From Candidatus Saccharimonadales bacterium (GTDB taxonomy: Bacteria; Patescibacteriota; Saccharimonadia; Saccharimonadales; EFPC-124), in the NCBI GenBank assembly GCA_035280785.1, contig DATEFF010000098.1, positions 1 through 15,973 of the forward strand: DNA of 15,973 bases. The letters are read 5' to 3'. Under the pieces are notes generated by a model, which saw nothing but the letters and a program-made list of their open reading frames with translations, made no database searches and was not told where the DNA came from. How positions within the stretch are numbered: the first letter of the stretch is position 1; each line of letters opens with the position of its first letter. Below, piece after piece: positions 1-15,521 of this stretch. Both the position numbers and the translations under genes were made by a program.

Positions 1-1231
1 GTGCGTAGTTGCGAGCTTTGTAGCGAACAAGCAATGCCTGGAGACGTTCGTCGGCAAAACCAGGGTTAAAGTCCGCCAAGGTCGTACGGTCAGCGGCTCG
101 GACAGCACTCATCTTTGGCTTGTCGCGCTCATTCACAAAGCCGTCGTATAGCGCAGCATCGACGTCTTTAGCTTTGGGGAAGGCACCGTCACGAGTGAAG
201 ACAGCGCGCATTGTATCTAATATTCCAGCTGTGCGCAGCGCAGATAAGTGCTTTTCGACTGTGGCAACATCAAGTTTAATTCGTTCCTGCGTTGGCCCGT
301 CCAAAACGCCGAGTGGCGCAACGGCCGGGCACTTGTTGAGCGCCAATTCCTTGACCGGCAGCGACACGAAGCCAGGCTTCTGGCGGTCTTCCCACTTTGC
401 AAATCGAATTGCTTTGAGGTCATCCACCGTTTTGCCCACCCACTGAGTTGGGTCAGAGCGCAGGTCGTACACCAACATTGAGCCAGGGTTGCTGCCTGGA
501 CCTATTGGCAGCGCAACGGTCGTATGCAGAACATCCTTCGGGTAGCGACCAGATGCATATACAAACGGTTTGGGGTCGTCCAGGTTTACGATCTTTGCGA
601 CTTCCTTTTTGTCACGCATCTTGAGCAAGTGGTCAAAGATACGCGGCTGCTTTGTCTTGATAAGTTTGGCTACGCCTATCAGCGCCACAACGTCACTGAG
701 CGCGTCGTGCGCTTGCTCGTGGTCGAGGCCGTTGATGGCCGATAATTTCTCGAGGCGATTCATGGGCTGGCCGTTTTCGTCGAACGGCCATTCAATGCCG
801 TCTGGTCGCAAAGCGCGAGTCATGCGCACAACGTCCAACATGTCCCAGCGCGAGCGGTCTTCCTTCCAGGCCCATTCGTAAGGGTCATAAAAGTTACGAT
901 ACAACGTGTAACGCATAAATTCATCGTCAAAACGGACACTGTTAAAGCCCAGGATGATCGTGCCCGGCGTCAGTACTTGCTCGTGCAGCAAACGCAAGAA
1001 ATCCGCCTCGCTGTAGCCCTCCTCGAGCGTTTTCTGCGGCGTAATGCCCGTCAGCACAACAGCCGCCGGATCAGGCAGAACTTCGTCACTCAGAGCCACC
1101 AGAATGTTTATAGGGTCGCCAATCGGATTCATGTCCATGTCGGTTCGCTGACCAGCAAACTGCATGATGCGCTGGCGCTTCGGGTCAAATCCAGAGGTTT
1201 CGAGGTCGTAGAAAAAGAATGTCGGTTTCAC
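1..1231 (-). CDS. sbcB: Exodeoxyribonuclease I (DEDDh 3'-5' ssDNA exonuclease), C-terminus cut by the window edge; GTG start
   Basis: My own minus-strand translation from 1231 gives VKPTFFFYDLETSGFDPKRQRIMQFAGQRTD...ILGFNSVRFDDEFMRYTLYRNFYDPYEWAW...LDHEQAHDALSDVVAL...LVRYKARNYA. This tracks E. coli ExoI motifs (YETFG, NNVRFDDE, FYRNFYDPY, AHDAxxDV, YRARNF) along the whole length. It is absent from the ORF track because it starts with GTG and runs off the edge. An in-frame stop lies at 1252-1250. No clear SD, so the start is uncertain. Confidence 0.85.
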   Translation of the reverse strand, partial: MKPTFFFYDLETSGFDPKRQRIMQFAGQRTDMDMNPIGDPINILVALSDEVLPDPAAVVLTGITPQKTLEEGYSEADFLRLLHEQVLTPGTIILGFNSVRFDDEFMRYTLYRNFYDPYEWAWKEDRSRWDMLDVVRMTRALRPDGIEWPFDENGQPMNRLEKLSAINGLDHEQAHDALSDVVALIGVAKLIKTKQPRIFDHLLKMRDKKEVAKIVNLDDPKPFVYASGRYPKDVLHTTVALPIGPGSNPGSMLVYDLRSDPTQWVGKTVDDLKAIRFAKWEDRQKPGFVSLPVKELALNKCPAVAPLGVLDGPTQERIKLDVATVEKHLSALRTAGILDTMRAVFTRDGAFPKAKDVDAALYDGFVNERDKPKMSAVRAADRTTLADFNPGFADERLQALLVRYKARNYA

Positions 1232-1258
1232 TCCACTAGTGTAACGCAGCTACCCCTG

Positions 1259-1283
1259 CAAAACAAAAACGCCCGCTTGGGCG
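1259..1283 (-). terminator. Intrinsic terminator (minus strand) just upstream of sbcB
   Basis: The minus strand reads CGCCC-AAGC-GGGCG followed by TTTTTGTTTTG. The stem is short (5 bp, all GC) but the U tract is good. Confidence 0.45.
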
Positions 1284-1307
1284 CCTTTGCGATAAGTTCA
1301 TGAAAAC

Positions 1308-1321
1308 CAAGCTAGATAGAT
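1308..1321. repeat. Left arm of perfect 14-bp inverted repeat CAAGCTAGATAGAT
   Basis: Exact reverse complement of 1924-1937. It sits exactly at the AT-rich to GC-rich transition. Confidence 0.8.
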
Positions 1322-1923
1322 TGGGCGGAGCCCCCGGGCGTGTTGCCCGGGGGTCCGTCGTCGATCGACTCGTGGTCGGGGTCGGATGTCCGATGCGCAC
1401 GGATCGCGTGCCCGCTCTGTGGCGGAGGTCCGTCGTCTGTCCCCTGATTCCACGTCGCCGTCCTGAGTCGCGGACGGCGGCGGGGGCGTACCATGTTCGG
1501 TTGTCCGTTCCAGTCGCTGGAAGCGGTTGGAGCCAGAGCTCACCCGCAGCGGCTCGCTGCACGGTGGAACTCAGTAACTGGACCGAGACCACGGCCGCCA
1601 TGTGCCCCGCGTGGGCAGTGGCGTTGGTGTCGGGCCAGGTCGCGGCGGTCGCGCCGGCGGTCAGAGCCTGTGGTTGGTGGTGGGCGCCCCGTAGGGCCTC
1701 GGACTTCGCATCTCGGATGCTCCTTGAAGGTCTCGTTACTACTCTTGCAGAGGCTCTCTCGGTGAGAGGGTGAAGTCCTAGGGTTGTCGCATTACCACTC
1801 CCGATAGGGTGTTGATTCCCGCACATGTCGGCTGCCTCGTCGGTTGGCCGAGCCGATCATTCGATTTGGCGGGGCTTACCAGCGGCGCATCATGCGTGCG
1901 CCGTTCGTAAGCCCTGCCAAATT

Positions 1924-1937
1924 ATCTATCTAGCTTG
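1924..1937. repeat. Right arm of perfect 14-bp inverted repeat ATCTATCTAGCTTG
   Basis: Exact reverse complement of 1308-1321. Partial further complementarity continues inward (TTGG at 1917-1920 with CCAA equivalents near 1321-1324). Confidence 0.8.
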
Positions 1938-1939
1938 TT

Positions 1940-1973
1940 AAAAAACACCGATGTGCATTGCTGCCCAATCGGT
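1940..1973 (-). terminator. Intrinsic terminator (minus strand)
   Basis: The minus strand reads ACCGAT-TG-G-GCA GCAA TGC-A-CA-ATCGGT. This is about an 11-bp stem with one mismatch and a GNRA loop, followed by G-TTTTTT. Confidence 0.55.
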
Positions 1974-1984
1974 TAACAAAAGCT

Positions 1985-2013
1985 ATTTTACAAGAAATAA
2001 GTTCATAATGCAA
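1985..2013 (-). promoter_or_regulatory. Sigma70-like promoter (minus strand): TTGCAT - 17 nt - TAAAAT
   Basis: The -35 TTGCAT lies at 2013..2008 and the -10 TAAAAT at 1990..1985, with a 17-nt spacer. The predicted TSS near 1978 sits directly in front of the 1940-1973 terminator. Confidence 0.4.
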
Positions 2014-2028
2014 GAGTTTTTGCGGTGC

Positions 2029-2070
2029 GCCGGTGGCGGGCTGGGAACTGAGTCCCTACCCGCCACCGGC
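2029..2070 (-). terminator. GC-rich hairpin without U tract, downstream of the 2098-2436 ORF
   Basis: A 12-bp perfect stem GCCGGTGGCGGG / CCCGCCACCGGC with an 18-nt loop, 28 nt after the stop codon. No T run follows on either strand. Confidence 0.45.
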
Positions 2071-2097
2071 AGTGGCGCGCCCCAGAGGTGCTGGGAC

Positions 2098-2436
2098 TTA
2101 CGCCGGGAGGATCGCCTCGACCTGCGCGATCACGTCGTTGGGCAGCGCCGGGGACCCCATCGGGCCGAAGGCGGTGCCGCGCGCGACGCGGAACCGGGCG
2201 TAGTCGACGTGCTTGTTGGTCGGCTGGCCGCTGACCAGGTGCTTGCGGTGGTGCGTGTACGCGGCCTTGACCCGGAGGTCGGCCCCGTCGCGCTCCACCC
2301 AGCAGACCAGGTCGGTGACGTTGTGCGTCGTGTCCCGATCCATCAGGATCCGGTGGACACGCGTCACGACCCCCAGGGTCGCCAGACGGTCGTGCATGGC
2401 CTGCGCGTTGGCAGGCACCTCACGGTGCTGAGGCAT
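2098..2436 (-). CDS. Hypothetical 112-aa soluble protein encoded in GC-rich DNA
   Basis: In 2161-2220 the third codon position of this frame is 20/20 G/C, against 11/20 and 12/20 for the other two positions. GAGAGGGG lies 8 nt upstream of the ATG. The composition is protein-like (MPQHREVPANAQAMHDRLATLGVV...), unlike the overlapping plus-strand ORFs. I do not recognise the family. Confidence 0.7.
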   Translation of the reverse strand: MPQHREVPANAQAMHDRLATLGVVTRVHRILMDRDTTHNVTDLVCWVERDGADLRVKAAYTHHRKHLVSGQPTNKHVDYARFRVARGTAFGPMGSPALPNDVIAQVEAILPA

Positions 2437-2484
2437 GGTGTAAACCCCTCTCGATGAAGTCGCTCACACGGCGACAACCTTATA

Positions 2485-2512
2485 ATTCTACATATTTATG
2501 AAGTTTTTGCAA
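2485..2512 (-). promoter_or_regulatory. Sigma70-like promoter (minus strand): TTGCAA - 16 nt - TG-n-TAGAAT (extended -10)
   Basis: The -35 lies at 2512..2507 and the -10 at 2490..2485, preceded by TG. It sits in an AT-rich 75-bp spacer between the obg stop and the GC-rich ORF. Confidence 0.45.
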
Positions 2513-2537
2513 GTATAAGTTCAGGTGAGCTAAAGAG

Positions 2538-3833
2538 TTAGTCACCAAAAGTCATGGTGTGCGTACCAGAGCGACCGATTGCGACAGTGTTGCCCTCGGT
2601 AAGACCTTGGCGCTCGAGCTCATGCATAATGCCCATTTTGCTCATGATATCCCACAGGCGTCGGCGACCTGGTTCGCTATCAAAGTTAGTGCGAGCAGCA
2701 AACTTCTCAATTTTCTGTCCGCTTACTACAAATCGGCCACCGTCATGTGTCACCTTCCACGAATCACGCTTCTGGGTGTCGTCGAGACTAATAACTGGAA
2801 TGCCAGTCGCTTCCTCTTGTGCTTCAGCAGCTTCGAGCTTCTGCGCGCGAACACGCTTGACCTCTACATCTAGTGCGCGTAACAGATCAGTCAAGCCGGC
2901 ATGTGCTGATGAGGAAATAGCAAATAACTGAGTGCCTTCAGGTAGCACCTTGGCCAGTTCGGCCTTCTTCTGTTCGACGCCGTCCTCTGGGAGGCCCTCA
3001 ATCTTGGTAAGGGCAACAATCAGCGGACGCTTGGCCAGTTCGGGACTGTAGGCAGCCAGCTCGTTCTGGATAGTCGTAAAGTTCTCGGCGACATTGTCGT
3101 CATAAATGTCCACCAAGTGCAGCAAAACAGCGGTGCGCTCAACGTGGCGCAGGAATGCATCGCCAAGGCCCTTACCTTCGCTGGCGCCTTCAATAAGACC
3201 AGGGATGTCAGCAATTAGCAGAGAAGAACTGTCAACGTCGGCTACACCAAGGTTAGGCGTGAGGGTCGTAAACGGATAATCAGCGATCTCTGGTCGCGCG
3301 TTTGTTACAACAGACAGGAATGTCGACTTACCCGCATTCGGTAAACCAACCAAGCCAACGTCGGCCAGGAGCTTCAACTCGAGGATCAAGGTAAACTCTT
3401 CACCTCTTTCGCCGAGCTCTGCAACCTTTGGCGCCTGGCGAGTCGACGACTTAAAGTGGGCGTTGCCAAAACCACCATCGCCACCGCGAGCAACGATAGA
3501 TCGCTGACCAATTTCGGTCAGGTCGGCAACTAGCTTGCCTTCCAGATAGACCTGCGTACCAACCGGTACTTTAACCAACAGGTCGTCGCCGCTCTTGCCG
3601 CGCTTGTTACGCTTGGAGCCGGCTTGACCGTGCTCAGCGTCGAGTTCTTGCTTGTAGCGGAAACCCAAAAGCGTGTTGAGGTTCTGATCGCCCACAAACA
3701 CAACATTGCCACCGCGCCCGCCGTCACCACCGTCAGGGCCGCCTCGGTCGATGTATTTTTCCTTACGAAAACTAACGGAGCCATTGCCGCCGTTACCTGC
3801 TCGTACCAATACTTCAACTTTATCTACAAACAT
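2538..3833 (-). CDS. obg: GTPase Obg/CgtA
   Basis: N-terminal glycine-rich Obg fold (MFVDKVEVLVRAGNGGNGSVSFRKEKY...GGPDGGDGGRGG). G1 motif GLPNAGKST and G3 motif DIPGLIEGA. C-terminal OCT-type extension (FVVSGQKIEKFAARTNF...). Confidence 0.95.
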   Translation of the reverse strand: MFVDKVEVLVRAGNGGNGSVSFRKEKYIDRGGPDGGDGGRGGNVVFVGDQNLNTLLGFRYKQELDAEHGQAGSKRNKRGKSGDDLLVKVPVGTQVYLEGKLVADLTEIGQRSIVARGGDGGFGNAHFKSSTRQAPKVAELGERGEEFTLILELKLLADVGLVGLPNAGKSTFLSVVTNARPEIADYPFTTLTPNLGVADVDSSSLLIADIPGLIEGASEGKGLGDAFLRHVERTAVLLHLVDIYDDNVAENFTTIQNELAAYSPELAKRPLIVALTKIEGLPEDGVEQKKAELAKVLPEGTQLFAISSSAHAGLTDLLRALDVEVKRVRAQKLEAAEAQEEATGIPVISLDDTQKRDSWKVTHDGGRFVVSGQKIEKFAARTNFDSEPGRRRLWDIMSKMGIMHELERQGLTEGNTVAIGRSGTHTMTFGD

Positions 3834-3854
3834 ACGTTACGCCCCATTATACAG

Positions 3855-3885
3855 AAAACCGCCTCAGATTGACAGAGGCGGTTTT
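3855..3885 (-). terminator. Intrinsic (bidirectional-type) terminator after the LysM/CHAP gene
   Basis: AAAACCGCCTC - 9-nt loop - GAGGCGGTTTT, an 11-bp stem with A/T runs on both sides, 20 nt downstream of the stop at 3905. Confidence 0.75.
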
Positions 3886-3904
3886 CTATTTTACAAATGT
3901 GCTA

Positions 3905-5077
3905 CTAATGGATGTAGTTGTAGCTGCCAACAGACGAGGCAGGGACCGTACGGGTTGAGATAACATTCCAACCAGCGTAGTTCATGTCCGACACCAGCAG
4001 GCTACCATCGGCGTTGACGCGCTCGACGATACCAACGTGGCCGTAACCACCCCAACCACCACCGTTCTGAATGACGGCGCCAGCTTCAGGCGTGTGGTCT
4101 ACGCGGAAGCCCTGAGCACGGGCCATCGCCGACCAGCTCACAGCGTTACCCCAGTTACCACTGATCGGACGACCGATCTCGGCACGGCGGTTGTATGCGT
4201 AGTATGTACAGTAACCGTAGGCGTAACCGTTACCAGCTACGAATGTCGAACTGACAGATGTAGAGGTGACACTGCTCGAGCTACTTGAGTAGCTACGTGG
4301 AGCAACATAACCAGGACGCTCGTTCTCTGGCAGGACACCATCTGGGATGATGATCTGCGAGCCGACCTTCAGGCCGGAGAGTTCAGCGTCGTTAAAGGTA
4401 ATAATACGCTCCTTGTCGGCCTGGTACTTTTCGGCCAGCTTACCGGCATCGTCACCGCTTTTAACGGTATAGACAACACCAGTTACGCTAGGAATGGTCA
4501 GTTTGGTACCAGCCTTCAGCGAGTCAGATGTTAGGTTATTTGCCCAACGGACGGTGTCTTCTGAGACACCAAATGCGGCAGCGACAGACTTAACGTTGTC
4601 ACCTTCCTTGGTTACATAGCTCGTTACACCCTTGCGGCCAGTGGTCTGGCTGACGATCTGAGGCTTGCTAATGAAGCTGTTGTCGGTCTGGGCTAGCTCT
4701 GTCTTGCTATTGAGGGAAATAGCCAAGCTTGCCACCTGAGCGCTCACCAACATGTTGGTGCTCTCGGCAACAGAAGCGGCCACATCAGCAGCCGCCACCT
4801 GGTCAACGCTTGGCTTGTCTTGCTCGAGAATCGACTGAGCTCCAGCCGTCTGCGATGCTTCAACAGGTGCGCGATAACCAATGGCTACGATGGCAATGAT
4901 AAAGGCTACGACCACAACTTGAGACGTAACCAGGGCGAAATTCAACTTTTTAGTGCGAGCACGAAGTCTCGCTGCATTTTTAGTAGCAATCTCTGTTAGT
5001 TTTGGACTGGTTTGGGATACCGAGGCACGTTGTTGAGCCTGGCCCAGAGCAATATTGTTACTAATATGCGTCTCCAT
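3905..5077 (-). CDS. Membrane-anchored peptidoglycan hydrolase with two LysM repeats and a C-terminal CHAP (Cys/His amidohydrolase-peptidase) domain
   Basis: N-terminal TM segment (LVTSQVVVVAFIIAIVAIGY). LysM-like repeats (YVTKEGDNVKSVAAAFGVSEDTVRWANNL...LTIP and YTVKSGDDAGKLAEKYQADKERIITFNDA...IIIP). CHAP-like tail (GYCTYYAYNRR...GHVGIVERV...SDMNY). Confidence 0.85.
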   Translation of the reverse strand: METHISNNIALGQAQQRASVSQTSPKLTEIATKNAARLRARTKKLNFALVTSQVVVVAFIIAIVAIGYRAPVEASQTAGAQSILEQDKPSVDQVAAADVAASVAESTNMLVSAQVASLAISLNSKTELAQTDNSFISKPQIVSQTTGRKGVTSYVTKEGDNVKSVAAAFGVSEDTVRWANNLTSDSLKAGTKLTIPSVTGVVYTVKSGDDAGKLAEKYQADKERIITFNDAELSGLKVGSQIIIPDGVLPENERPGYVAPRSYSSSSSSVTSTSVSSTFVAGNGYAYGYCTYYAYNRRAEIGRPISGNWGNAVSWSAMARAQGFRVDHTPEAGAVIQNGGGWGGYGHVGIVERVNADGSLLVSDMNYAGWNVISTRTVPASSVGSYNYIH

Positions 5078-5273
5078 TATCGCTTGTTTCCAAGCGAATT
5101 TACTTCCGTTCGTGTCTTTCTTCCAATGTTTGTGTTGGAACAGAGATGTGTCGACCTTGAGTTGCTAACTGTGTATGTATTATAGCATCTCGTGCGACAC
5201 GACTTGGGAAGAACACTGATGTACGTAAAACACTTACTTTAGGGGCGTTTTACCCACCCGAGCGTACATGTTT

Positions 5274-5302
5274 ATTGTACCCAAGCTTGACATAAGTGTC
5301 AA
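5274..5302 (-). promoter_or_regulatory. Near-consensus sigma70 promoter (minus strand): TTGACA - 17 nt - TACAAT
   Basis: The -35 lies at 5302..5297 and the -10 at 5279..5274. This gives a leader of about 190 nt in front of the LysM/CHAP start at 5077. Confidence 0.6.
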
Positions 5303-5328
5303 TACGTTAGGACGTATGTCTACCCCTG

Positions 5329-6546
5329 TTATTCGGCGCAAAGTTTCGTACAATATCGGTCGATATTTGACTGGTGTTCGGCCTCTGTTCGAGCAAAGTA
5401 GGTCGTACCGTCGTCACCCGCTACAAAGAACAAGTAGTCACCTGGCGCGGGGTCAGCAACCGCCGTCAAGGCCGTAATGTTGAAGTTGGCAATTGCCCCA
5501 GGAGGCAATCCTGTATAACGACGTGTGTTGTACGGCGAGTCGATATTAATGGCCTCTTGTTGGCCCAAAAGTTCAGCCGCGTACATAAACGTTACGTCAG
5601 ACCCAAGCTGCATTCCATCTTTGAGACGCTTCTCGAACACCTGCGCAACCTGGCGCTGGTCAGAATAGGTCGACGTCTCCCTCTGGATTATTGATGCTAG
5701 CGTGATGCCCTGGTGCAGGTTAAAGCCCTTTGCGGCAAGCTGTGGTTGCAGGCCTTTCTCTTGAATCTTGGCGTAGAATTCGTCAAATGTGCGCACCAAG
5801 AGCTGCTCGGCGGTTGTGTCCGAGCTGATCTGATAGGTATCGGGGTAAATATAACCATCGAGGTTTACACCATCCGGCTTGCTCGCGAGCAATGCGTGGT
5901 CGTATTTTTTTGTGAAGGCTGCATCAATATCTGCTTCAGCAAATCCATCCTTTATCAAATTCTTCTTGATACCAACCAGTGTCTGGCCGGGCAAAATGGT
6001 GACATTAAACGTGTCGACCTTGCCCTCGACCAACCAGGTCAAGATCTCTCGGGCAGGCTGCTTAGGAGTAAAGAGGAACACACCGGCCTGAAGCTTATCG
6101 CGGTCGCCACTCTGGCGCATCAGTAGCTGGAACGCAAAACTGCTTTTGATAACTTCTTTTTGCTCGAGCTCGTCGGCGATCTGTTCTGGAGTCGCACCTT
6201 GCTCAATCACAATACGGATACGACGGTCTTCGCTTGATCGCGGCAGCAAGGCGTCGTTGTACCATGCAAAACCAGCAATAATCGCCGCGACAATCACCAG
6301 CAACAGCGCGCCCAAAATACCCAAAATCCACCACTTCTTACGTGACTTAGGAGGGTTTTTGGCCAGGATTAAAGGCGTCTTGTGCCCAGCTTCGAGCAAC
6401 TCTTCAGGGACGTTTAAAGGTTCGCCTTCAGCGGTCGTTGCCGAGGATTGGCGAGGTTGAGGCTTTTGTGGCTGAGGTCGCTTGGGCGGGATTGGAGGCT
6501 TGCCGTTACCCTGCCTCTTAAACGGTCGTAGTGGCTTAATGTCCAT
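5329..6546 (-). CDS. mltG: Endolytic murein transglycosylase MltG (YceG-like) with Pro/Gln-rich N-terminal tail and one TM segment
   Basis: YceG-like body (...VFLFTPKQPAREILTWLVEGK...DGYIYPDTYQI...ITLASIIQRET...VFEKRL...LGSDVTFMYA...SPYNTRRYTGLPPGAIANF). I prefer the ATG at 6546 because GGAGG lies 6 nt upstream. The ORF track starts 7 codons earlier, at 6567. Confidence 0.88.
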   Translation of the reverse strand: MDIKPLRPFKRQGNGKPPIPPKRPQPQKPQPRQSSATTAEGEPLNVPEELLEAGHKTPLILAKNPPKSRKKWWILGILGALLLVIVAAIIAGFAWYNDALLPRSSEDRRIRIVIEQGATPEQIADELEQKEVIKSSFAFQLLMRQSGDRDKLQAGVFLFTPKQPAREILTWLVEGKVDTFNVTILPGQTLVGIKKNLIKDGFAEADIDAAFTKKYDHALLASKPDGVNLDGYIYPDTYQISSDTTAEQLLVRTFDEFYAKIQEKGLQPQLAAKGFNLHQGITLASIIQRETSTYSDQRQVAQVFEKRLKDGMQLGSDVTFMYAAELLGQQEAINIDSPYNTRRYTGLPPGAIANFNITALTAVADPAPGDYLFFVAGDDGTTYFARTEAEHQSNIDRYCTKLCAE

Positions 6547-6955
6547 AAGTTGCCTCCATGTAATCATCTAAAATGTACGTCGCAGCCAGGGCGTCAACGT
6601 CACCTTTTGCGAATGGTTTTTTACGATTTGTCAGTTCTTGCTCGGCTTTTACAGAGGTCAGCGATTCATCCTGAAAATGAACCGACTGGGTAAGCCCTTC
6701 AAGCCTACGGGCAACAAACTGCCGGATCGATTCGGTCTGTGCGGTCTCTTCGCCCGACATATTGCGTGGCAGGCCAACAACAACATCGGTAACTTCGTTC
6801 TCGAGCATTAAGCGTTGCAGCCGAACCAACTCTAGTCCGTCAACGTCGAGGGTCGTGAGCGGCGAAGACAATCGTCCGATACTATCACCGATAGCCACGC
6901 CAATGCGTCGCTCACCCACATCGAGGCCGAGGAGTACGCGTTTACTTTCCGTCAT
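6536..6955 (-). CDS. ruvX: Putative pre-16S rRNA nuclease / Holliday-junction-resolvase-like protein RuvX (YqgF)
   Basis: The N-terminus RVLLGLDVGERRIGVAIGD and the ...VVVGLPRNMSGEE...Q motif are typical YqgF signatures. The gene overlaps its upstream neighbour by 14 nt and mltG by 11 nt. Confidence 0.85.
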   Translation of the reverse strand: MTESKRVLLGLDVGERRIGVAIGDSIGRLSSPLTTLDVDGLELVRLQRLMLENEVTDVVVGLPRNMSGEETAQTESIRQFVARRLEGLTQSVHFQDESLTSVKAEQELTNRKKPFAKGDVDALAATYILDDYMEATYGH

Positions 6956-8621
6956 TTTTAATCGAGAATTTTATGTCTACCTTTTTAGGGTCGTTCGGCG
7001 CACCGTTCACCCAGAAGGGCGAAAACTTGATGTCAACATTCTCAACATTTGGAATCTGATTCACGATAGCCTGGATCTCGCCGTAACGCTTTCCAGCAAC
7101 TTGCTTGGCCAGTGCGTCGGTGTCGATCTTGCTGCCGATGTAGCCGGTTGTGCTCAGACGAGCAGAGTACGTACCGTTATCAAACTTCTGGAAGTTACCG
7201 AAGGCAATGGAGTTACTGCCGTTGCTAAAGATACTTTGGTTTGGCTTGGTGTCTAGTGCAGACTTGAGCGCAGAATTCAGCATTTCGTTCACGTCCTTGC
7301 GGGCTAGACCCAGGAGTGTGTAGGTTGTTTCGACGGTCAATTTAGCCTGCTTGGCCTGTTCGTCAACGTTCGGGCTGACCGATGGACTGCCCTGGTCAAC
7401 CGTGAAGCTCTCGTCAATGATGATGTATTCGCCATTGAATTGCTTCTTCAACTGATCTTTTGCGGCGTTGTTGTCTTGGGCTGCAAGTTGCGTCTTTGCT
7501 TTGTCGACGTCTGCCTGGGAGACGACCGTGACGGTCTGCTTGTCGCCACCGCTCATGGCCGACCCGCTAGCATTGAGCGATGCGTAGCCAGTTACGCTGT
7601 AGGTCTGAGCTGGAACGTTATATTCGTTGCCAATGTCGGTCGCCTGGACCTGTACGCTTGCTTGACCGGGATGGATACTACCGCCCGAGACGCTGGCGCC
7701 AGGGACGGTAACGGCTGCGGAACTGGCAAACTTGTGACCGCTTGCACCCGTAAAGATTGTGCCAGCCGGGACAGACTTAGCGTCGCTGTCGAATGAGTTG
7801 GTGATCGTAACACTGCCTGTCGCTTTGTTGCCAATGTCTTTTGTGCCTGTGGCGGTGAAGTCAGCCGAAACGGACTTTTTGAGCTGCTGTGGGTTGGCCT
7901 TAAACTGAAGCTCAGTTGCCTTGCTGGCAGCCAGCTTAGGGTCAAGACTTAACGTCTGGTCGATACTAACAGAGGTAGTTTTAGCGCTAATTGTAACCGT
8001 TGCTCGTGGCGCAATCGCGAACATCCACCACAACAACACGATAAGCGCCACCGCGCCACCGCCGATAATGAAGAATTTTTTGCGGAACGAATTAAAGTTT
8101 GGCACCTTAATCAGCGACTTCATGTCTTTGCCCGGCTTTTTGGCGACAGCGCCAGCGCCCGCAGCGCCGCTCGGTTTGTTCATAGTGCGGAGGTCGATCT
8201 GCGAGCTAATATCGTCGGCTGCCGAGACAGAGGCAGGCTTTGCTTTGTCCGCGACTTCTGCAACACCTGCGGCCGCAGCCAACTCGCCTACTGGCAAGTC
8301 TTCACCGTTGATCACTTCTTCGTCGGCAACTTCTGGAGCGTCCATCTCTGGAATTTCTGGACGCGACTGAAGATTCTTGGCAACAGGGATCTTGAGGCCA
8401 GCAGCGAGTGCAGTCAGCGAGTGATCGCTCGTGATCAATACGACACGCTTATCGTTCTCTGTCGCGCTTTTAGTCAACAACTTGAGGTTAACGGCGCTCT
8501 GAAGCACACCAATTCGCTTTGGAGGAACAAGTGCGACGATTTTTGCGCCAGCTTCTTTTACCTTACCGATAATGCTGGTGATATCGTCTTCGATGTCGAT
8601 GTAGATTACATCTTTTTTCAT
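6942..8621 (-). CDS. 559-aa bitopic membrane protein of unknown function: cytoplasmic N-domain, Ala/acidic linker, one TM, large beta-rich outer domain
   Basis: N-domain MKKDVIYIDIEDDITSIIGKVKEAGAKIVALVPP.... Low-complexity residues about 96-170. TM segment FFIIGGGAVALIVLLWWMFAIAP. The outer domain is rich in T/S/V/G beta-like repeats (ATGSVTITNSFDSDAKSVPAGTIFT...). From memory it resembles proteins labelled baseplate J/gp47-like in CPR genomes, but I have not verified this. Confidence 0.7.
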   Translation of the reverse strand: MKKDVIYIDIEDDITSIIGKVKEAGAKIVALVPPKRIGVLQSAVNLKLLTKSATENDKRVVLITSDHSLTALAAGLKIPVAKNLQSRPEIPEMDAPEVADEEVINGEDLPVGELAAAAGVAEVADKAKPASVSAADDISSQIDLRTMNKPSGAAGAGAVAKKPGKDMKSLIKVPNFNSFRKKFFIIGGGAVALIVLLWWMFAIAPRATVTISAKTTSVSIDQTLSLDPKLAASKATELQFKANPQQLKKSVSADFTATGTKDIGNKATGSVTITNSFDSDAKSVPAGTIFTGASGHKFASSAAVTVPGASVSGGSIHPGQASVQVQATDIGNEYNVPAQTYSVTGYASLNASGSAMSGGDKQTVTVVSQADVDKAKTQLAAQDNNAAKDQLKKQFNGEYIIIDESFTVDQGSPSVSPNVDEQAKQAKLTVETTYTLLGLARKDVNEMLNSALKSALDTKPNQSIFSNGSNSIAFGNFQKFDNGTYSARLSTTGYIGSKIDTDALAKQVAGKRYGEIQAIVNQIPNVENVDIKFSPFWVNGAPNDPKKVDIKFSIKNDGK

Positions 8622-8626
8622 GAGTT

Positions 8627-9895
8627 TTACTGACTGAGGATTCGATTAAATTTGTCTTTTAGGCCATCGCCGCCTGTACTGCCTACAATCGTATCATATC
8701 CGACTCGCAGCAGGCCCATTGGCGTAATGAAGGTGTGATCTGTTACATCACCAGTCGTATCTGTTATACCAGCAACTTGGCTTGGCTGGATGCGTTGGAC
8801 CGTCGGCTTTTTGGTAAATGGCAGGTTTTTGTGCCAGTCTTGCTCCTCCAGAGCCTCGATAAGCTTGCTAAGGCTCGCGCCACCGCCACAGAGGAAGATG
8901 CGGTTGGGCAGGTGATCAATTGCGTCAAACTCGCCCAGGGCAAGCTCGACACCGTTGAGCCAGACTTCGAGCGTCTTATCAAGGGCGGTCGTGAGACCCT
9001 TCTTGATATCTGGCTTGAGGTTGGCTTCGTCGATGGACAACTTGAGCTTCTCGGCGTCTGTAAATGACACATCCAGCTCGGCGGCGATTGTCTTGGTAAA
9101 GCTACGCCCACCGATGCCAAACATCTTGGTTCCTTCGACGCCGCCGTCATTCACGACTGCGATGTCGGTCGTACCGCCACCGATGTCAGCCAAAATAGCT
9201 GTAAAGTTACTACTAGCGTCGACGCCCAAAACAGATCGACTAACAGCAAAAGGTTCGGCTGCAACGGCCAGCAGGTCGAGGTCGAGTTCGCTGGCGGTTC
9301 GCTCCAGCGCCCCAATGTGCACCATTGGCGCAAACGCCGTGTAGATCTGGATCGCCACGTCCTTACCCTGGAATCCAATCGGGTTGCTAATCTTGTAGCC
9401 ATCGATGTGAATGCTGACGATCGCGCTGTTAACCAGCTTGATCTCAACATCAGCATTGCCGGTCTCCCAGGCAATTTCCTTTTGGGCGCGAATCTGAGCA
9501 CGCTCTTGGACCTTCTCGATAATAAATTCCATCTCGGCCATGTCCAGCGGCTTGTCTGGCTGAGGTCGCTTGTAGCGGATAGTCTGCGTAACACCCTTCA
9601 CGAGCTCGCCAGCAATACCAATAACAGCGCGCTTGGCCTGGACGCCAGCTTGCTCCTCGGCGTCGCTGAGCGCCATCTCGCAATTACGGACAACACCGGC
9701 AATATCGGCAATCGCACCAGAGTGCATGTCGCTGAGTTCCTGATGTGCGCGGCCAACGCCAATAATCTTCAACTCGTCGCCTTCTACCCGAGCGATGAGT
9801 GCTTTGACATATTCAGTACCAATATCCAACGCTACGAGGTGTTGGTCACCACTGGAGGAACCTGGCAGCGCTGCCTTAAGTTTGTTGAGAATCAT
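8627..9895 (-). CDS. ftsA: Actin-fold ATPase, FtsA-like cell-division protein
   Basis: Phosphate-1 motif LVALDIGTEYVKALIA, phosphate-2/adenosine motif ILADIGGGTTDIAVV, and LCGGGASL near the C-terminus. FtsA-type inserted domain and a short C-terminal amphipathic tail (GLKDKFNRILSQ). Confidence 0.8.
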   Translation of the reverse strand: MILNKLKAALPGSSSGDQHLVALDIGTEYVKALIARVEGDELKIIGVGRAHQELSDMHSGAIADIAGVVRNCEMALSDAEEQAGVQAKRAVIGIAGELVKGVTQTIRYKRPQPDKPLDMAEMEFIIEKVQERAQIRAQKEIAWETGNADVEIKLVNSAIVSIHIDGYKISNPIGFQGKDVAIQIYTAFAPMVHIGALERTASELDLDLLAVAAEPFAVSRSVLGVDASSNFTAILADIGGGTTDIAVVNDGGVEGTKMFGIGGRSFTKTIAAELDVSFTDAEKLKLSIDEANLKPDIKKGLTTALDKTLEVWLNGVELALGEFDAIDHLPNRIFLCGGGASLSKLIEALEEQDWHKNLPFTKKPTVQRIQPSQVAGITDTTGDVTDHTFITPMGLLRVGYDTIVGSTGGDGLKDKFNRILSQ

Positions 9896-9955
9896 CTCGC
9901 TTAAGTATACAACATAACCACGGACGGTTTCTATAAGATCAGTTTGTTGCCTTGA

Positions 9956-9998
9956 CCTCCGGCCCGCATGCCCAGAATCGGGCGTGCGGGGCCGGAGG
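9956..9998 (-). terminator. Long GC-rich hairpin without U tract, downstream of the 10005-10280 ORF
   Basis: CCTCCGGCCCGCATGCCC - AGAAT - CGGGCGTGCGGGGCCGGAGG. This is about 17 bp with one bulge and one G-U pair, starting 7 nt after the stop codon. Confidence 0.45.
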
Positions 9999-10004
9999 CC
10001 ACCA

Positions 10005-10280
10005 TCAGCAGGTCATGGCGTAGGGACGGTAGGTGCCCGGGCTCACGACCTCTTGGAGCGCACCGCCCTTGGCCAGAACGACCTTGGGCTTGGGACTGGC
10101 GATCCGGGCGGCGTCCAGTGCGACGCGCTCGCTCGCGGAGGCCAGGATGACCAGGGCGAACTCCCCGCCAGAGAGTTCGTGCATCAGGCCGTACAGCTCC
10201 TCCTCGGTCTCCACCTGGGCCGTCTGAACACTGCGCACCCCTCGCGGCGCCTCGCCCACTCCGTAAACCACGACTTTCAT
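10005..10280 (-). CDS. Hypothetical 91-aa protein encoded in GC-rich DNA
   Basis: The third codon position is 18/20 G/C in 10081-10140 for this frame. GAGGAG lies 9 nt upstream of the ATG. The sequence MKVVVYGVG...EEELYGLMHELSGGEFALVILASASERVALDAARIA... has a loose, unverified resemblance to small alpha/beta proteins such as V-ATPase subunit F. Confidence 0.65.
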   Translation of the reverse strand: MKVVVYGVGEAPRGVRSVQTAQVETEEELYGLMHELSGGEFALVILASASERVALDAARIASPKPKVVLAKGGALQEVVSPGTYRPYAMTC

Positions 10281-10353
10281 CGCTAATCACTCCTCGCTGA
10301 GTGCCTGTGCTGACAATACTTATTATAGCGCCTTACTACCCCTGTTACGAGTG

Positions 10354-10361
10354 CTTATGTT
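10354..10361. repeat. Target-site duplication CTTATGTT (left copy)
   Basis: Identical 8-mer at 14918-14925. Each copy directly abuts a terminal inverted repeat. Confidence 0.8.
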
Positions 10362-10385
10362 CGCGAGTATCCCTTGACGTCATGG
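10362..10385 (+). repeat. Left terminal inverted repeat CGCGAGTATCCCTTGACGTCATGG
   Basis: It matches the reverse complement of 14894-14917 (GGCGAATATCCCTTTACGTCATGG) at 21/24 positions. It contains TTGACG, which could serve as the -35 for the transposase, with TACACT 17 nt downstream. Confidence 0.8.
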
Positions 10386-10409
10386 AACATATGAGATACA
10401 CTTAGAGTA

Positions 10410-11276
10410 ATGAAGGCTCCACGCTACACCATCGACACCCTGCACCAACAATTTCCTGACGATGACGCTTGCCTGGACTACATGTTTCAAAAGCAATATG
10501 GCGAACTAAAAGCCTGCCCGAAGTGCGGCGTAGTTAGCCCTAGATACTACCGTGTGCGGAACCGCAAATGCTATGAGTGTAACGACTGCGGCTACCAACT
10601 AAGTCCACTGGCTAACACTATCTTTCACAAGTCCGATACCCCGCTCAAGAAGTGGTTCTATGCCATCTATCTATTCGGCGTCGGTAAGAACGGCGTCAGT
10701 GCCAAAGAAATAGAACGACATCTCGGCGTTACCTACAAAACTGCTTGGCGCATGGCAAAACAAATTCGTCTCATGATGCAGCAAAACGGCAGCATACTGT
10801 CCGGCATCGTCGAAGCTGATGAAACATATATCGGTGGTAAGGCTAAACTTGATCGGAAGTTTAATAATAAGACCGCTGTAGTCGGGATTGTTGAAAAGAA
10901 GAAAGGTATCGGCCAAGTCAAAGCCTTTACCACAAAACAAGCAGATGCAACCGTGACGCTGCCGTTCCTTCGAGCTAATATTGAAGCCGGTTCAATCTTG
11001 CATACAGATGACAGCCGTATTTACTCGCGAGTTAAACGAGACTTCGCCCACGCATTCGTCAACCACAGCAAGCTAGAGTATGTAAGATCCGGCGTCCACA
11101 CCAACACTATTGAAGGCTTTTGGGGTCAGCTCAAACGCTCCCTAGACGGAACATACCACTGCGTTAGTCCGAAGTATCTTCAGTATTACGTGAACGAGTT
11201 TGTGTATCGGTATAATCATCGCGACGTGGCTGCTTTTCCTGCTTTGATGGAAGCGGCTGTGCGGCGCGTTCAATAG
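10410..11276 (+). CDS. IS1595-family (ISXO2-like) DDE transposase with N-terminal zinc ribbon
   Basis: Zinc ribbon CPKCG...CYECNDCG. HTH-like segment GVSAKEIERHLGVTYKTAWRMAKQIR. Catalytic motifs VEADETYIGG, LHTDDSRIY and HTNTIEGFWGQLKR, followed by YVNEFVYRYNHR. Confidence 0.92.
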   Translation: MKAPRYTIDTLHQQFPDDDACLDYMFQKQYGELKACPKCGVVSPRYYRVRNRKCYECNDCGYQLSPLANTIFHKSDTPLKKWFYAIYLFGVGKNGVSAKEIERHLGVTYKTAWRMAKQIRLMMQQNGSILSGIVEADETYIGGKAKLDRKFNNKTAVVGIVEKKKGIGQVKAFTTKQADATVTLPFLRANIEAGSILHTDDSRIYSRVKRDFAHAFVNHSKLEYVRSGVHTNTIEGFWGQLKRSLDGTYHCVSPKYLQYYVNEFVYRYNHRDVAAFPALMEAAVRRVQ

Positions 11277-11617
11277 TCTCCTCAACATCTTTTTGAACAT
11301 TGGGGTTACGCTCGGAGTCAGGTAGCGACTCCTCGTACTTCTTGATACTTTTTCGGATTTCTTCGTCAGATTTATCAGGCATATCTATATTTTAGAATGT
11401 TTGCCCTTATCCGTAATAAGTGTCAGTAGATTGTATCTGTTACAGGCGTTAGAATATTCTCCTAAGCAGAAACCTAACATAAGATAATTACAGGTATATA
11501 TGGACTAGATTATCGTAACCGAAGATACCCTTTTCGAGCATATCTTTATCTGTTAATCACTTTTTCTTTTCTTCTTCCTTTTATATATACTATATACAGA
11601 AACTATTACTTACCCAT

Positions 11618-12463
11618 ATGCCAGTAAATACAGTAACTCGAACAAGCAAGAATCCTACGAGTAAACAACTAGCAGTCTTAAAATTATTGTATCGATTTAG
11701 ATTTGGTACTACCGACTTATTAGCAAGAAGTTTAGATTTAAAAGATGGTAGGTATATTCATACAAGGTTAGAAGCATTAGTAAGTCAGGGATATATTGGC
11801 AAGAACTACGACAGCAGCTATAAGCTGGACGGCAAGCCAGCAACATACTACCTACTGCCAAAAGCATTTAAGGCACTCAGACGGCAGCACAAAGTTACCG
11901 GCAAAGAACTATCCGACAAAACTCTGCGAAACGCCTACAAGGACAAAGAGGCCTCCAATGAGTTCATTGACCGCAAGCTCGCAGTATTCACCATCTACGA
12001 CAAGCTACGAGCCACACATGGCACAAGCCTGAAGCTCTGGACGAAAGACCAGCTCAATTTCGACAAGTATGATTACTTCCCGCAGCCAAAGCCTGATACT
12101 TACTTAACCATTTTGCCGGAAGGCATACGACCCCGCGAACGGTGCTTCTTTTTGAACTACTTGGACGACGATACGCCATTCTTTGTGCATGTGCGGCGAT
12201 TACAAAAGTACATTGATTACGTCGAAGCCAGGGAATGGGAAGATGCGACTAACTCAAAGCTGCGCGGCGTACTGCTCGTTTGCGAATCCACCAGTCTGCT
12301 CAAACGTATTCGTAAAAAGCTGGCTCAAGCAGTAGACGAAGACGAAACGCCACGGTTTTGCTACACAACACTACAGGCGCTCACAAACACCACGCCAGAA
12401 GATGACGAGGTGTGGCAGATGATTGGGAAGCCATTGGAAGTGTTTGGGTTAAAGGATATTTAG
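11618..12463 (+). CDS. Replication-relaxation (Replic_Relax) family protein, wHTH plus nuclease-like core
   Basis: N-terminal wHTH pattern (LAVLKLLYRFRFGTTDLLARSL...RLEALVSQGYIGK...YYLLPKAFKAL). Downstream motifs W..DQL...PKPDTYLTI and FFLNYLDDDTP are typical of this plasmid/ICE-associated family. Confidence 0.75.
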   Translation: MPVNTVTRTSKNPTSKQLAVLKLLYRFRFGTTDLLARSLDLKDGRYIHTRLEALVSQGYIGKNYDSSYKLDGKPATYYLLPKAFKALRRQHKVTGKELSDKTLRNAYKDKEASNEFIDRKLAVFTIYDKLRATHGTSLKLWTKDQLNFDKYDYFPQPKPDTYLTILPEGIRPRERCFFLNYLDDDTPFFVHVRRLQKYIDYVEAREWEDATNSKLRGVLLVCESTSLLKRIRKKLAQAVDEDETPRFCYTTLQALTNTTPEDDEVWQMIGKPLEVFGLKDI

Positions 12464-12532
12464 TAACTCAGCTTTGCGAAGCAAGGCGGAGTTGGCCTGT
12501 CCCCAGAAACCAGGATAGTATTTACTTAGGCA

Positions 12533-12561
12533 TTGACCTAATTAAGTCAATAACTTATAGT
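12533..12561 (+). promoter_or_regulatory. Promoter TTGACC - 17 nt - TATAGT overlapped by an 18-bp palindromic operator (TTGACCTAATTAAGTCAA)
   Basis: The palindrome at 12533-12550 is 16/18 self-complementary. The -10 lies at 12556-12561 and the ATG at 12568, only 6 nt after the -10, so the mRNA would be leaderless. Confidence 0.55.
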
Positions 12562-12567
12562 TGCAAT

Positions 12568-12888
12568 ATGAATCCATTTATCGCCTTGGCCGATCCGACA
12601 CGTCTCAAAATATTTGAGTTGATTGCCCAGGGTGAGAGAAGCGTGGGCGAAATCGCGCGGCAGTTTACCTTTAAAGCACCTACTATCTCGCAACATTTGC
12701 GTATTTTAAAGCAAGCCAAACTCGTGCATGTCCGGGCGGAAGCTCAAAAACGGCTATACACGGTCGACCAAACGGGGCTGCAAGAAATGCAGCTTTGGCT
12801 GGCTCGCATGCAGCGCGAATGGAACAGCCACCTGGATGCGCTAGAGCATGCTTTGCAAGAAAATAAACGTAACCAAAAGGAGATATAA
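12568..12888 (+). CDS. ArsR/SmtB-family metalloregulator-type transcriptional repressor
   Basis: MNPFIALADPTRLKIFELIAQGERSVGEIARQFTFKAPTISQHLRILKQAKLV is the canonical ArsR wHTH. The start is taken at the internal ATG at 12568 because the upstream part of the ORF covers the promoter. Confidence 0.88.
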   Translation: MNPFIALADPTRLKIFELIAQGERSVGEIARQFTFKAPTISQHLRILKQAKLVHVRAEAQKRLYTVDQTGLQEMQLWLARMQREWNSHLDALEHALQENKRNQKEI

Positions 12889-13317
12889 ATGTCAGAAATT
12901 ACTAACCCATTCGTCATAGAGCGGCTTATGGACGCGCCTGCTGATCAAGTCTGGAAAGCGCTTACCGACATCGCAACACTCAAGCAATGGCTGCCGTTCT
13001 TTCCTGATTTCAAGCCTGAGATAGGTTTTGAGACGCGTTTTATGCTTGGTCCTGAGGGGCACGAATATGAGCATGTGTGCCAGGTCACCGAGGCCGAGGC
13101 AGAAAAAAAACTTACCTACAGCTGGCGTTATAGAGGCTATCCAGGTGACGCATATGTAACCTATGAACTTGTGCCGCAAGGCAGTAAAACCAAGGTCATT
13201 CTTACCTACCGCATTACCGAGCCCTTCCCAGCCGACAACCCGGACTTTAAGCCAGAAATGGCCGCCGAGGGCTGGAACTTCACCCTTGATAACCTCAAAA
13301 AGTTCGTTGAGGCGTAG
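12889..13317 (+). CDS. SRPBCC / AHSA1 (Aha1-like) domain protein
   Basis: ERLMDAPADQVWKALTDIATLKQW...YSWRY...YVTYELVPQGSKTKVILT...GWNFTLDNLKKFVE fits the SRPBCC fold family that is very often paired with ArsR. The ATG immediately follows the ArsR stop codon. Confidence 0.8.
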   Translation: MSEITNPFVIERLMDAPADQVWKALTDIATLKQWLPFFPDFKPEIGFETRFMLGPEGHEYEHVCQVTEAEAEKKLTYSWRYRGYPGDAYVTYELVPQGSKTKVILTYRITEPFPADNPDFKPEMAAEGWNFTLDNLKKFVEA

Positions 13318-13323
13318 ACCTTC

Positions 13324-14826: not shown

Positions 14827-14850
14827 TATCCACTAGCTTTGCTCTTTTTA
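14816..14850 (+). terminator. Intrinsic terminator of the MFS gene
   Basis: AGCAAAGCTAGT - ATCC - ACTAGCTTTGCT, a 12-bp perfect stem overlapping the stop codon, followed by CTTTTTA. Confidence 0.8.
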
Positions 14851-14893
14851 GTCATTTTCTGTAGCAAGTTGCTTTATCTCCGTCGAAAGTTAC

Positions 14894-14917
14894 CCATGAC
14901 GTAAAGGGATATTCGCC
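14894..14917 (-). repeat. Right terminal inverted repeat (reverse complement GGCGAATATCCCTTTACGTCATGG)
   Basis: Matches 10362-10385 at 21/24 positions in inverted orientation. Confidence 0.8.
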
Positions 14918-14925
14918 CTTATGTT
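14918..14925. repeat. Target-site duplication CTTATGTT (right copy)
   Basis: Identical to 10354-10361 and directly abuts the right inverted repeat. Confidence 0.8.
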
Positions 14926-14929
14926 AATA

Positions 14930-14958
14930 TTGACTTTCTGAGACAATAATGGTAATAT
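14930..14958 (+). promoter_or_regulatory. Sigma70-like promoter TTGACT - 17 nt - TAATAT
   Basis: The -35 lies at 14930-14935 and the -10 at 14953-14958. It is followed by a roughly 45-nt leader with GAGGGAG (14994-15000) 8 nt before the ATG at 15009. Confidence 0.55.
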
Positions 14959-15008
14959 ACTTTGTACGCCCATTTCTTGACCGTTTACTTCCCGAGGGAG
15001 CACCTGAC

Positions 15009-15359: not shown

Positions 15360-15421
15360 CGCGCCGCGCACGTCAGTCAACAACCCACAGCAACCTCGGA
15401 GGCAAGCGCGCCAAACGGGCG

Positions 15422-15503: not shown

Positions 15504-15521
15504 TTTCTGTGAAATTATATG

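Follow-up and report, generated by a model that had tools for sequence, protein, structure and literature searches.

A candidate large structured RNA with paired ends and embedded mini-ORFs between obg and sbcB in Candidatus Saccharimonadales

In this work we analyzed a 15,973-nt stretch of DNA from a Candidatus Saccharimonadales bacterium (GenBank assembly GCA_035280785.1, contig DATEFF010000098.1, positions 1 to 15,973; hereafter the window), in which a GC-rich element of 630 nt at positions 1308-1937 lies between the genes obg and sbcB. A sequence-only reading of the window had proposed that the element is a large structured RNA closed by a helix of its two ends, and the comparison with 10 syntenic relatives bears this out by folding z-scores, by pairing in sequences outside the training set, and by five covarying pairs in the terminal helix. 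We consider it probable that the element encodes a single-copy, clade-restricted, independently transcribed structured RNA of ∼605-650 nt with translated mini-open reading frames (mini-ORFs), which would act as a dual-function RNA or be gated by translation. As far as sequence comparison can establish it, the element is a minus-strand unit with a multi-domain fold closed end to end, an internal ribosome-binding site (RBS), and a selected reading frame. On this comparative evidence it appears to be an undescribed RNA class of narrow distribution, and its unusual addition is a conserved mini-ORF inside an ornate, end-closed RNA.

The element differs from its surroundings in base composition. The whole window is ∼52% GC and the flanks of the element are at ∼0.52, whereas the element is 65% GC overall; its interior had been put at 68-75%, which is right as to GC-richness and too high in number. 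In 200-nt windows the GC fractions are 0.68, 0.68, 0.705, 0.65, and 0.585, with values of 0.68-0.705 across 1301-1700 and a peak of ∼70%.

Eleven distinct versions of the element (605-652 nt), the window copy and 10 related metagenome loci, were aligned, and all of them are syntenic in the order obg, element, sbcB. Five close relatives of a 112-aa protein encoded beside the element all show the order obg, small ORF, ∼850-bp gap, sbcB, and the gap aligned to the reverse complement of the window with 81% column identity. A 20-mer from the most conserved block had one true match among 185,579 species genomes, in a Candidatus Saccharibacteria metagenome-assembled genome (MAG; locus L013), and a related pattern search gave one additional metagenome locus (L014). 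Eight Obg relatives with 69-92% identity were traced to their contigs, which provided four more diverged full copies (L017, L018, L019, and L024), L020, and a copy with an aberrant 3' end at the contig end (L021). Homologues of Obg also assign the source organism to Candidatus Saccharimonadales. Identity of the element to the window copy is 72-87%, about equal to that of the flanking genes. Scans of the collections found one copy per genome or contig, and the terminal arms were found solely as one pair per locus. No match came up when the element was compared by BLASTN with phage and plasmid collections or when viral contigs were scanned for an exact pattern. Its distribution appears to be limited to a single clade of Candidatus Saccharimonadales (Saccharibacteria/TM7) from soil and rhizosphere.

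Two of the traced contigs carry different content between obg and sbcB. In L022 (Obg 74% identical) the interval 5338-6030 holds two short promoter-plus-terminator units without an Rfam match, which could be other unannotated small RNAs; in L023 (Obg 69%) the interval 5288-5830 holds an unrelated 97-aa ORF. The two loci were considered as empty sites and rejected as such, since other inserts are present and no clean insertion boundary was found. The element is a place where assemblies are prone to breaks and wrong joins: the L016 contig ends at 5759, just before it; the aberrant 3' end in L021 spans 5997-6129; and the L013 scaffold has a 100-N gap and a 55-nt duplicated overlap at the strong GC 3' hairpin. 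The element may therefore be under-sampled in MAGs.

Folding against shuffled controls and covariation analysis had both been suggested as checks on the proposed structure, and both came out in its favor. Compared with dinucleotide shuffles, the minimum free energy of the element gave z = -8.8 on the minus strand and -6.5 on the plus strand. RNAalifold on the six closest sequences predicted 160 pairs, 28 of them with compensatory changes, and the structure comprises 28 helices. This close-set structure was mapped onto the 11-sequence alignment without refitting, and the pairing partners were slid by 1-3 columns as controls. Of the alignment cells at predicted pairs, 80.5% formed standard pairs vs 33-42% after sliding, and 66 pairs were changed on both sides vs 21-33. 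None of 500 shuffles matched the real value on any of five measures. In six distant sequences that had not contributed to the structure, pairing reached 69% (34-40% in controls) with 100 compensated cells (35-42 in controls).

The two ends of the element, CAAGCTAGATAGAT (1308-1321) and ATCTATCTAGCTTG (1924-1937), form an exact 14-bp inverted repeat, as had been described. The arms occur just in these two copies in the window even when two mismatches are allowed (0.06 expected). A perfect inverted repeat of 14-15 bp is no rarity in a 16-kb window, and length alone is not enough for significance: another one, 15 bp long with arms 2.4 kb apart, is found within coding regions at 6813-6827/9252-9266 and is probably due to chance. 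The repeat of the element is significant because of its position and its covariation. The resulting terminal helix (helix 1) is 12-15 bp long, AU-rich, and without CCA; 92% of its cells are paired and 5 of 12 pairs show compensatory changes. The arms differ by lineage (CAAGCUAGAUAGAU, CAAGUUAGGUAGG, CAGGUUAGACAAAGU, and CAAGUUAGGCAGAUU), and each is accompanied by the matching partner arm.

The 5' hairpin (helix 2) corresponds to a stem that had been predicted at 1863-1920, and it is real: 94% of its cells are paired and 13 of its 23 pairs have compensatory changes. It contains an A.C mismatch (∼1915 with ∼1872; columns 25/69 of alignment A5) that is kept in 8 of the 11 sequences; L017 and L018 have G-C in its place, and L024 has A-U. 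The mismatch may form an A+.C wobble or serve in recognition. Two further hairpins named at the outset, at 1829-1857 and 1564-1592, are weakly supported or fall within the variable region.

The longest invariant blocks of the alignment are in the 3' domain, which consists of a CGGACAAC motif (1507-1500), a hairpin with a GACUC loop (1479-1456), a multi-helix domain (1454-1371; helices 22-26), and a strong GC hairpin (1356-1327). Helices 21-28 of this domain are 76-95% paired and carry compensatory changes, and the out-of-sample pairing of the domain is 73% vs 36-40% for the controls. In the variable central region the figure is 53% vs 34-41%. Two conserved perfect palindromes were noted on the minus strand, CCUAGG at 1777-1782, whose first five bases are invariant in 11/11 sequences, and CGCCGGCG at ∼1651-1658, which is near-invariant; both could be hairpin parts or self-association sites. 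Pairing of CCUAGG with downstream bases and the first sORF codons (the small ORF, or sORF, is described below) is good in the window clade and is not kept in L017, L020, and L024, so it was rejected as a general switch. A possible anti-Shine-Dalgarno sequence near the 3' end (CUCC) is better explained by its membership in the 3' hairpin.

The choice of strand by folding or alifold energy was ambiguous and was dropped; the question was settled by tetraloops, by promoter and terminator, and by the sORF. C(UNCG)G tetraloops number 16 on the minus strand vs 1 on the plus strand, and UNCG and GNRA loops together account for 43 of 335 candidate loops on the minus strand vs 23 of 509 on the plus strand. 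Alignment of 10 upstream regions showed the invariant TT(G) of a -35 and TA...T of a -10 hexamer, with an A-run upstream and an extended TG in most relatives. A consensus promoter/terminator scan of the window left this promoter below threshold and flagged neither of the hairpin-plus-T-run sites. These two minus-strand sites (1940-1973 and 1259-1285), which the sequence-only reading had taken for terminators, are visible in the sequence and kept in relatives. The first is a terminator-like leader hairpin between the promoter and the 5' arm; it covaries across loci, is kept in relatives with other sequences, and has a T-run in most of them. Its role may be to stop transcripts that run on from obg or the 112-aa ORF, or to act as an attenuator. 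The second is the downstream terminator, which every locus retains, even the element-free L023. The conserved promoter, terminator, tetraloops, and internal frame place the predicted RNA on the minus strand. The features are collected in Table 1.

Table 1. Positions of the element, its parts, and its neighbors in the window
Feature	Position	Strand	Details
Whole structured RNA element, 630 nt	1308..1937, read 1937 -> 1308	-	11 syntenic loci, covariation
Terminal helix, 5' arm	1924..1937	-	Exact inverted repeat; helix 1
Terminal helix, 3' arm	1308..1321	-	Exact inverted repeat; helix 1
5' hairpin, helix 2, 23 pairs	1864..1922	-	Outer stem GGCAGGGCUU/AAGCCCCGCC nearly invariant
Predicted minigene	1777..1802	-	SD-like GGGAG 1802-1798, 5 nt, ATG CGA CAA CCC TAG 1792-1778 (MRQP*); overlaps CCUAGG 1782-1777
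Predicted sORF	1661..1727	-	SD AAGGAG 1727-1722, 8 nt, ATG 1711, TGA ending 1661; 16 codons, MRSPRPYGAPTTNHRL
GCCC-UACG-GGGC hairpin within sORF	1686..1697	-	UNCG tetraloop; encodes P-Y-G
Variable central region	1528..1660	-	Clades differ in length and sequence; poorly alignable
Conserved 3' domain	1327..1526	-	Longest invariant blocks of alignment
Predicted promoter	1985..2013	-	-35 TTGCAT 2013-2008, 17-nt spacer, -10 TAAAAT 1990-1985
Leader hairpin and U6 tract	1940..1973	-	Hairpin 1973-1946, U6 1945-1940; read from sequence
Predicted intrinsic terminator	1260..1285	-	GGCGCCC-AAGC-GGGCG and U5GU4; ends RNA; overlaps sbcB promoter region
sbcB (exonuclease I)	Starts 1231, runs off left end	-	Called gene
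112-aa orphan protein gene	2098..2436	-	Own promoter-like site 2512-2485; 3' hairpin 2070-2029
obg	3833..2538	-	Called gene
SD, Shine-Dalgarno sequence; sORF, small open reading frame.

The element as a whole does not look like a protein gene. Codon-position periodicity is absent from it, unlike the neighboring ORF 2098-2436; stops are found in every frame (2-7 per frame in the window copy and 1-11 over all 11 homologues); and 83 of 112 pairwise indels between homologues are not multiples of 3 (29 are). Searched against Pfam, the region's six longest ORFs gave no more than a chance match to BMC (E = 0.13). No traceable frame, similarity, or periodicity of a gene or pseudogene runs across the element, and a decayed protein gene, which would have overturned the RNA proposal, was thus not found. 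The accompanying statement that there is no coding signal at all proved too broad: it overlooked a conserved 16-codon sORF (1711..1661) and a 4-codon minigene (1792..1778). Because a mini-ORF with conserved frame is preceded by an RBS, the RNA would not be purely non-coding.

The mini-ORFs came from a scan of the alignment for a Shine-Dalgarno (SD) core followed after 4-10 nt by a start codon, in which two alignment columns alone were common to most sequences. At the sORF column, 11/11 sequences have [A/G]AGGAG or GGA[A/G]GGA, then 6-8 variable nt, and then ATG or GTG. The sORF has 13-21 codons over the 11 sequences. Its start lies 15, 18, 21, or 24 nt from the internal hairpin and the hairpin 21, 24, 27, 30, 33, or 39 nt from the stop, which amounts to at least eight independent length changes, every one a multiple of 3. 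Nine sequences end the sORF with TGA, L001 with TAG, and L017 with TAA, and a conserved CCGCCGGCG-like landmark always comes 0-9 nt after this stop codon; the palindrome CGCCGGCG closely follows the sORF stop. The other two frames are mostly open in this region. The hairpin loop is UACG, UCCG, or UUCG in 9/11 sequences, so that N varies and U, C, and G are fixed; in L019 another hairpin takes this place, and the peptide differs as well. At the minigene column, GGAG(G) is followed, usually after 5 nt (8 in L020), by ATG or GTG in 10/11 sequences, and L019 has a weak AGAG; exactly four codons and then TAG are present in 11/11. A likeness of GUG-CGA minigenes to the 23S rRNA E-peptide, and of the peptide tail ...HRL to apidaecin, was considered and found no support across the homologues. 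We concluded that the comparative signature of translation is strong for the sORF (RBS, multiple-of-3 indels, and stop interchange) and that its reading frame appears to be under selection: RBS, frame, length, and stop are conserved and the product is not.

Since the RBS, frame, length, and stop are conserved and the peptide is not, it is probably the act of translation that matters and not its product. In the mechanism that we propose, the RNA would be transcribed from its own sigma-70-type promoter and end at the intrinsic terminator. Its fold would have three parts, namely a 5' domain with the strongly conserved hairpin, the central module, and a 3' domain of many helices and conserved sequence, and the 12-15-bp AU-rich helix would join the first and last nucleotides and close the molecule into a compact particle resistant to nucleases and exonucleases. 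With the leader hairpin on one side and the terminator on the other, the terminal helix could plausibly be a site for RNase III, as in stable-RNA precursors, or protect the ends. The central module would carry two RBS-like units on which ribosomes could load, one with GGAG-N5-AUG and 4 codons, the other with AGGAG-N6-8-AUG/GUG and 13-21 codons. Ribosome transit would then melt the UNCG hairpin and remodel the RNA, following the logic of leader peptides or of mok in hok mRNA. Taken to its full extent, this would be a translation-gated ornate RNA, a machine or assembly of ∼630 nt whose fold and activity are switched by ribosomes crossing two mini-ORFs. In that specific form the proposal is doubtful. 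If it is true, the class would join large ornate RNAs, possibly self-assembling via palindromes, with leader-peptide-style sensing of translation status.

The strongest of the competing explanations is that the element is essentially an mRNA for a micro-peptide of 13-21 aa, with structured 5' and 3' regions and an end helix that control stability and translation in a hok-like manner. The conserved RBS, frame, and stop, the conserved end-to-end helix, and the upstream minigene with its own SD all fit such an mRNA. There is also a precedent in hok mRNA, in which a 5'-3' helix (tac/fbi pairing) locks the full-length RNA and the mok leader is translated, with translation rather than the product being what matters (PMC9841398). 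The element shares the long-distance 5'-3' helix with hok-type RNAs, and 3'-end processing would be a possible trigger. On the other hand, it has no hydrophobic toxin ORF, and the sORF peptides are basic and hydrophilic (e.g., MRSPRPYGAPTTNHRL), unlike membrane toxins. They are also poorly conserved around a shared core of R/K-P-Y/F/S-G-A; between the window copy and L002 there are four nucleotide changes in the last three sORF codons, all of which change the amino acid, and L019 keeps a hairpin without the peptide motif. The element is much bigger than hok-type RNAs, and its most conserved part, the 3' domain, lies downstream of the ORF and is more conserved than the ORF itself. No plus-strand promoter-like site was found in 1150-2600 by a consensus scan, which is a weak test for an antisense gene. 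We regard the micro-peptide mRNA as unlikely, although it deserves to be kept in mind.

A second explanation goes the opposite way: the element would be an ornate RNA like OLE, ROOL, or GOLLD and have no coding role at all, and the SD-AUG units and the frame would be by-products of structural or ligand-binding constraints, such as protein-bound motifs or self-association through CCUAGG and CGCCGGCG. The size, the GC-richness, and the multi-domain covarying structure agree with this, as do the invariance of the first five bases of CCUAGG, the near-invariant palindrome after the sORF, and the weak use of SD sequences in this genome. OLE is ∼610 nt and GOLLD ∼800 nt long. ROOL averages 581 nt, and among bacterial RNAs only rRNAs, GOLLD, and group II introns exceed it in size and complexity (PMC5737381); OLE, ROOL, and GOLLD form homo-oligomers (PMC12286853). 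With at least ∼500 nt and a complex, covarying, multi-domain fold, the element falls among the large ornate RNAs. It resembles these three in size class, in covariation-supported helices and junctions, in GC-richness relative to the genome, in being an independent unit, and in narrow range, and it sometimes adjoins a small orphan protein gene as OLE does with oapA. It differs from them in matching none of their Rfam models and showing no homology to their families, in its host (Saccharibacteria), in its location away from tRNAs and prophages, and in having one end-to-end closing helix. We know of no ornate RNA with an embedded, frame-conserved sORF and RBS. The restriction of multiple-of-3 indels to the sORF, the interchange of three stop codons and of ATG and GTG, and a spacer that is free in sequence and constrained in length are hard to explain without translation, and for this reason we consider a purely non-coding RNA improbable.

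Our preferred reading, a structured RNA with translated mini-ORFs, is closest in its likely mode of action to dual-function RNAs, of which RNAIII, at 514 nt, is large and multi-hairpin. Like RNAIII/delta-haemolysin, SgrS/SgrT, SR1/SR1P, AzuCR, and VcdRP, the element would combine a structured RNA with a small ORF whose translation is here predicted from conservation (dual-function RNAs are reviewed in PMC12612679 and PMC12310071). The peptides of those RNAs are 26-50 aa, conserved, and of known activities, whereas the sORF has 13-21 little-conserved codons; typical small RNAs also have a much smaller and less conserved structured part than the element. In appearance the element is nearest to the large ornate RNAs and in its likely working nearest to dual-function RNAs, and no covariance model of a known family matches it. 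With transfer-messenger RNA (tmRNA) it shares paired 5' and 3' ends and a short internal ORF with a normal stop between structured domains, but it has no tRNA-like domain or CCA, its ORF has its own SD and ATG/GTG start, and the peptides lack a hydrophobic ALAA-like tag end. It has an inverted repeat as retron non-coding RNAs (msr-msd) do, but is 3-4 times longer than these, and no reverse transcriptase domain was found among the called neighbors in any locus. The lack of a tRNA-like domain speaks against tmRNA, that of a toxin or antisense gene against a type I system, and that of a nearby reverse transcriptase against a retron.

Searches for known RNAs support the novelty of the element, as had been anticipated. 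Rfam 15 at gathering thresholds gave 0 matches to the element in the window and the 10 related loci, and relaxed searches (E ≤ 10 for the window and E ≤ 5 for six loci) gave only chance-level matches of ≤21 bits within it. The families covered include RNase P, SRP, 6S, tmRNA, group I/II introns, OLE, ROOL, GOLLD, HEARO, and riboswitches. ARAGORN found no tRNA or tmRNA. The Rfam search was sensitive enough to detect a lysM-TM7 motif nearby (51 bits). Since Rfam holds TM7-specific motifs, the absence of the element from Rfam is not due to TM7 never having been surveyed for structured RNAs. Literature searches for non-coding RNAs of large size or with structure, in Saccharibacteria or in the candidate phyla radiation, found nothing relevant and no earlier report.

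The element could also act in cis on the downstream sbcB, as its leader or attenuator, because it is always directly upstream of this gene in the same orientation and contains leader-peptide-like mini-ORFs. However, a strong terminator and the -10 hexamer of sbcB (TACACT), both conserved, lie in between, the hexamer being 6 nt from the start codon in all loci (window 1231-1243; L017-L024), and a unit of 630 nt with its own promoter and closing helix is unlike known leaders. Both the terminator and the sbcB -10 are present in L023, where the element is missing, which indicates that they predate the element and that sbcB is not simply its downstream cistron. We consider a leader function very improbable. 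The short distance between the -10 and the start codon suggests a leaderless sbcB mRNA, whose -35 would be located inside the T-tract of the upstream terminator.

Inert DNA, either a decayed gene from a high-GC (e.g., actinobacterial) source or a miniature inverted-repeat transposable element (MITE), would account for the foreign composition, the perfect 14-bp terminal inverted repeats, the compositionally odd neighboring ORF, and an obg/sbcB site that varies between genomes, but we give it hardly any credence and take it as largely refuted already, since compensatory changes preserve the terminal and internal helices across lineages, conservation is at the level of coding genes, stops are found in all frames without protein similarity in the Pfam search of long ORFs, phages, plasmids, and viral contigs gave no match, and the terminal inverted repeats come without dispersed copies or target-site duplication (the flanks, GAAAAC on one side and TTAAAA on the other, differ). 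The MITE, another outcome that would have spoken against the RNA proposal, is removed by the ends staying complementary through substitutions, by the single copy, and by the absence of target duplication.

Several points weigh against a structured RNA with translated mini-ORFs. The promoter, the ends, the processing, and the translation are all deduced from alignments, the evidence being entirely comparative, and the 11 sequences, of which ∼8 are effectively independent, all belong to one clade. Their alignment cannot be relied on in its central third. In absolute terms the folding energy is lower for the plus strand (-343 vs -295 kcal/mol on the minus strand) because it is G/U-rich, and energy therefore cannot decide the strand; on the plus strand, a G.U pair would take the place of the conserved A.C mismatch in the 5' hairpin. 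The leader hairpin should stop much of the transcription from the promoter. The shared core of the sORF peptides is what the GCCC-UNCG-GGGC hairpin encodes, and hence no evidence favors a functional peptide. The TAG of the minigene is within the conserved CCUAGG palindrome, and the minigene may be coincidental for that reason. Most genes in the window are without a clear SD sequence, so that the two internal SDs stand out, yet they could serve a non-ribosomal role.

The 112-aa orphan protein gene appears to be a facultative neighbor outside the RNA. It adjoins the RNA in eight distinct loci (the window, L001, L002, L005/L014, L013, L016, L017, and L024) and is absent from L018-L021. Its GC content at third codon positions (GC3) is 0.94 in the window, where that of obg is 0.55; it is 0.87-0.92 in L001, L002, L005, and L016, 0.76 in L024, and 0.53 in L017. 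The GC content of the RNA goes up in the same lineages as the GC3 of this gene. The five close relatives of the protein were found among 5.8 billion proteins, and its family has 26 representatives among 1.84 billion proteins. The protein had no family match, and its AlphaFold 2 model (predicted local distance difference test score, pLDDT, of 82), with a helix-helix-3 long strands-helix arrangement, had no fold match in PDB.

A 10-nt direct repeat, ATAAGTTCAT (ATGAACTTAT on the minus strand), flanks the element at ∼1291-1300 and 1999-2008. The promoter spacer holds one copy, and the second comes shortly after the 3' arm; neither adjoins the inverted repeat. The repeat is kept in L001 and L002 and does not qualify as a target-site duplication of the usual kind. 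The lysM-TM7 RNA motif (RF03005) was detected on the minus strand at 5072-5212, upstream of a LysM/CHAP gene, with 51.4 bits and E = 1.7e-8 (gathering threshold 61.5), and at 36-51 bits in L005 (3226-3369), L018 (2033-2182), L019 (1957-2093), L017 (1988-2121), and L024 (2205-2349). These matches look like a divergent branch of that candidate cis-regulatory family.

To our knowledge, large complex bacterial RNAs are rare, and each class so far shows unusual biochemistry or architecture. Saccharibacteria are ultra-small episymbiotic bacteria with genomes of ∼1 Mb that retain little dispensable sequence, and the element would be a large complex RNA in this group. Scans of GC-rich intergenic regions still reveal unrecorded RNA classes in candidate-phyla genomes. 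The embedded mini-ORF would provide a concrete handle on the coupling of translation and RNA folding.

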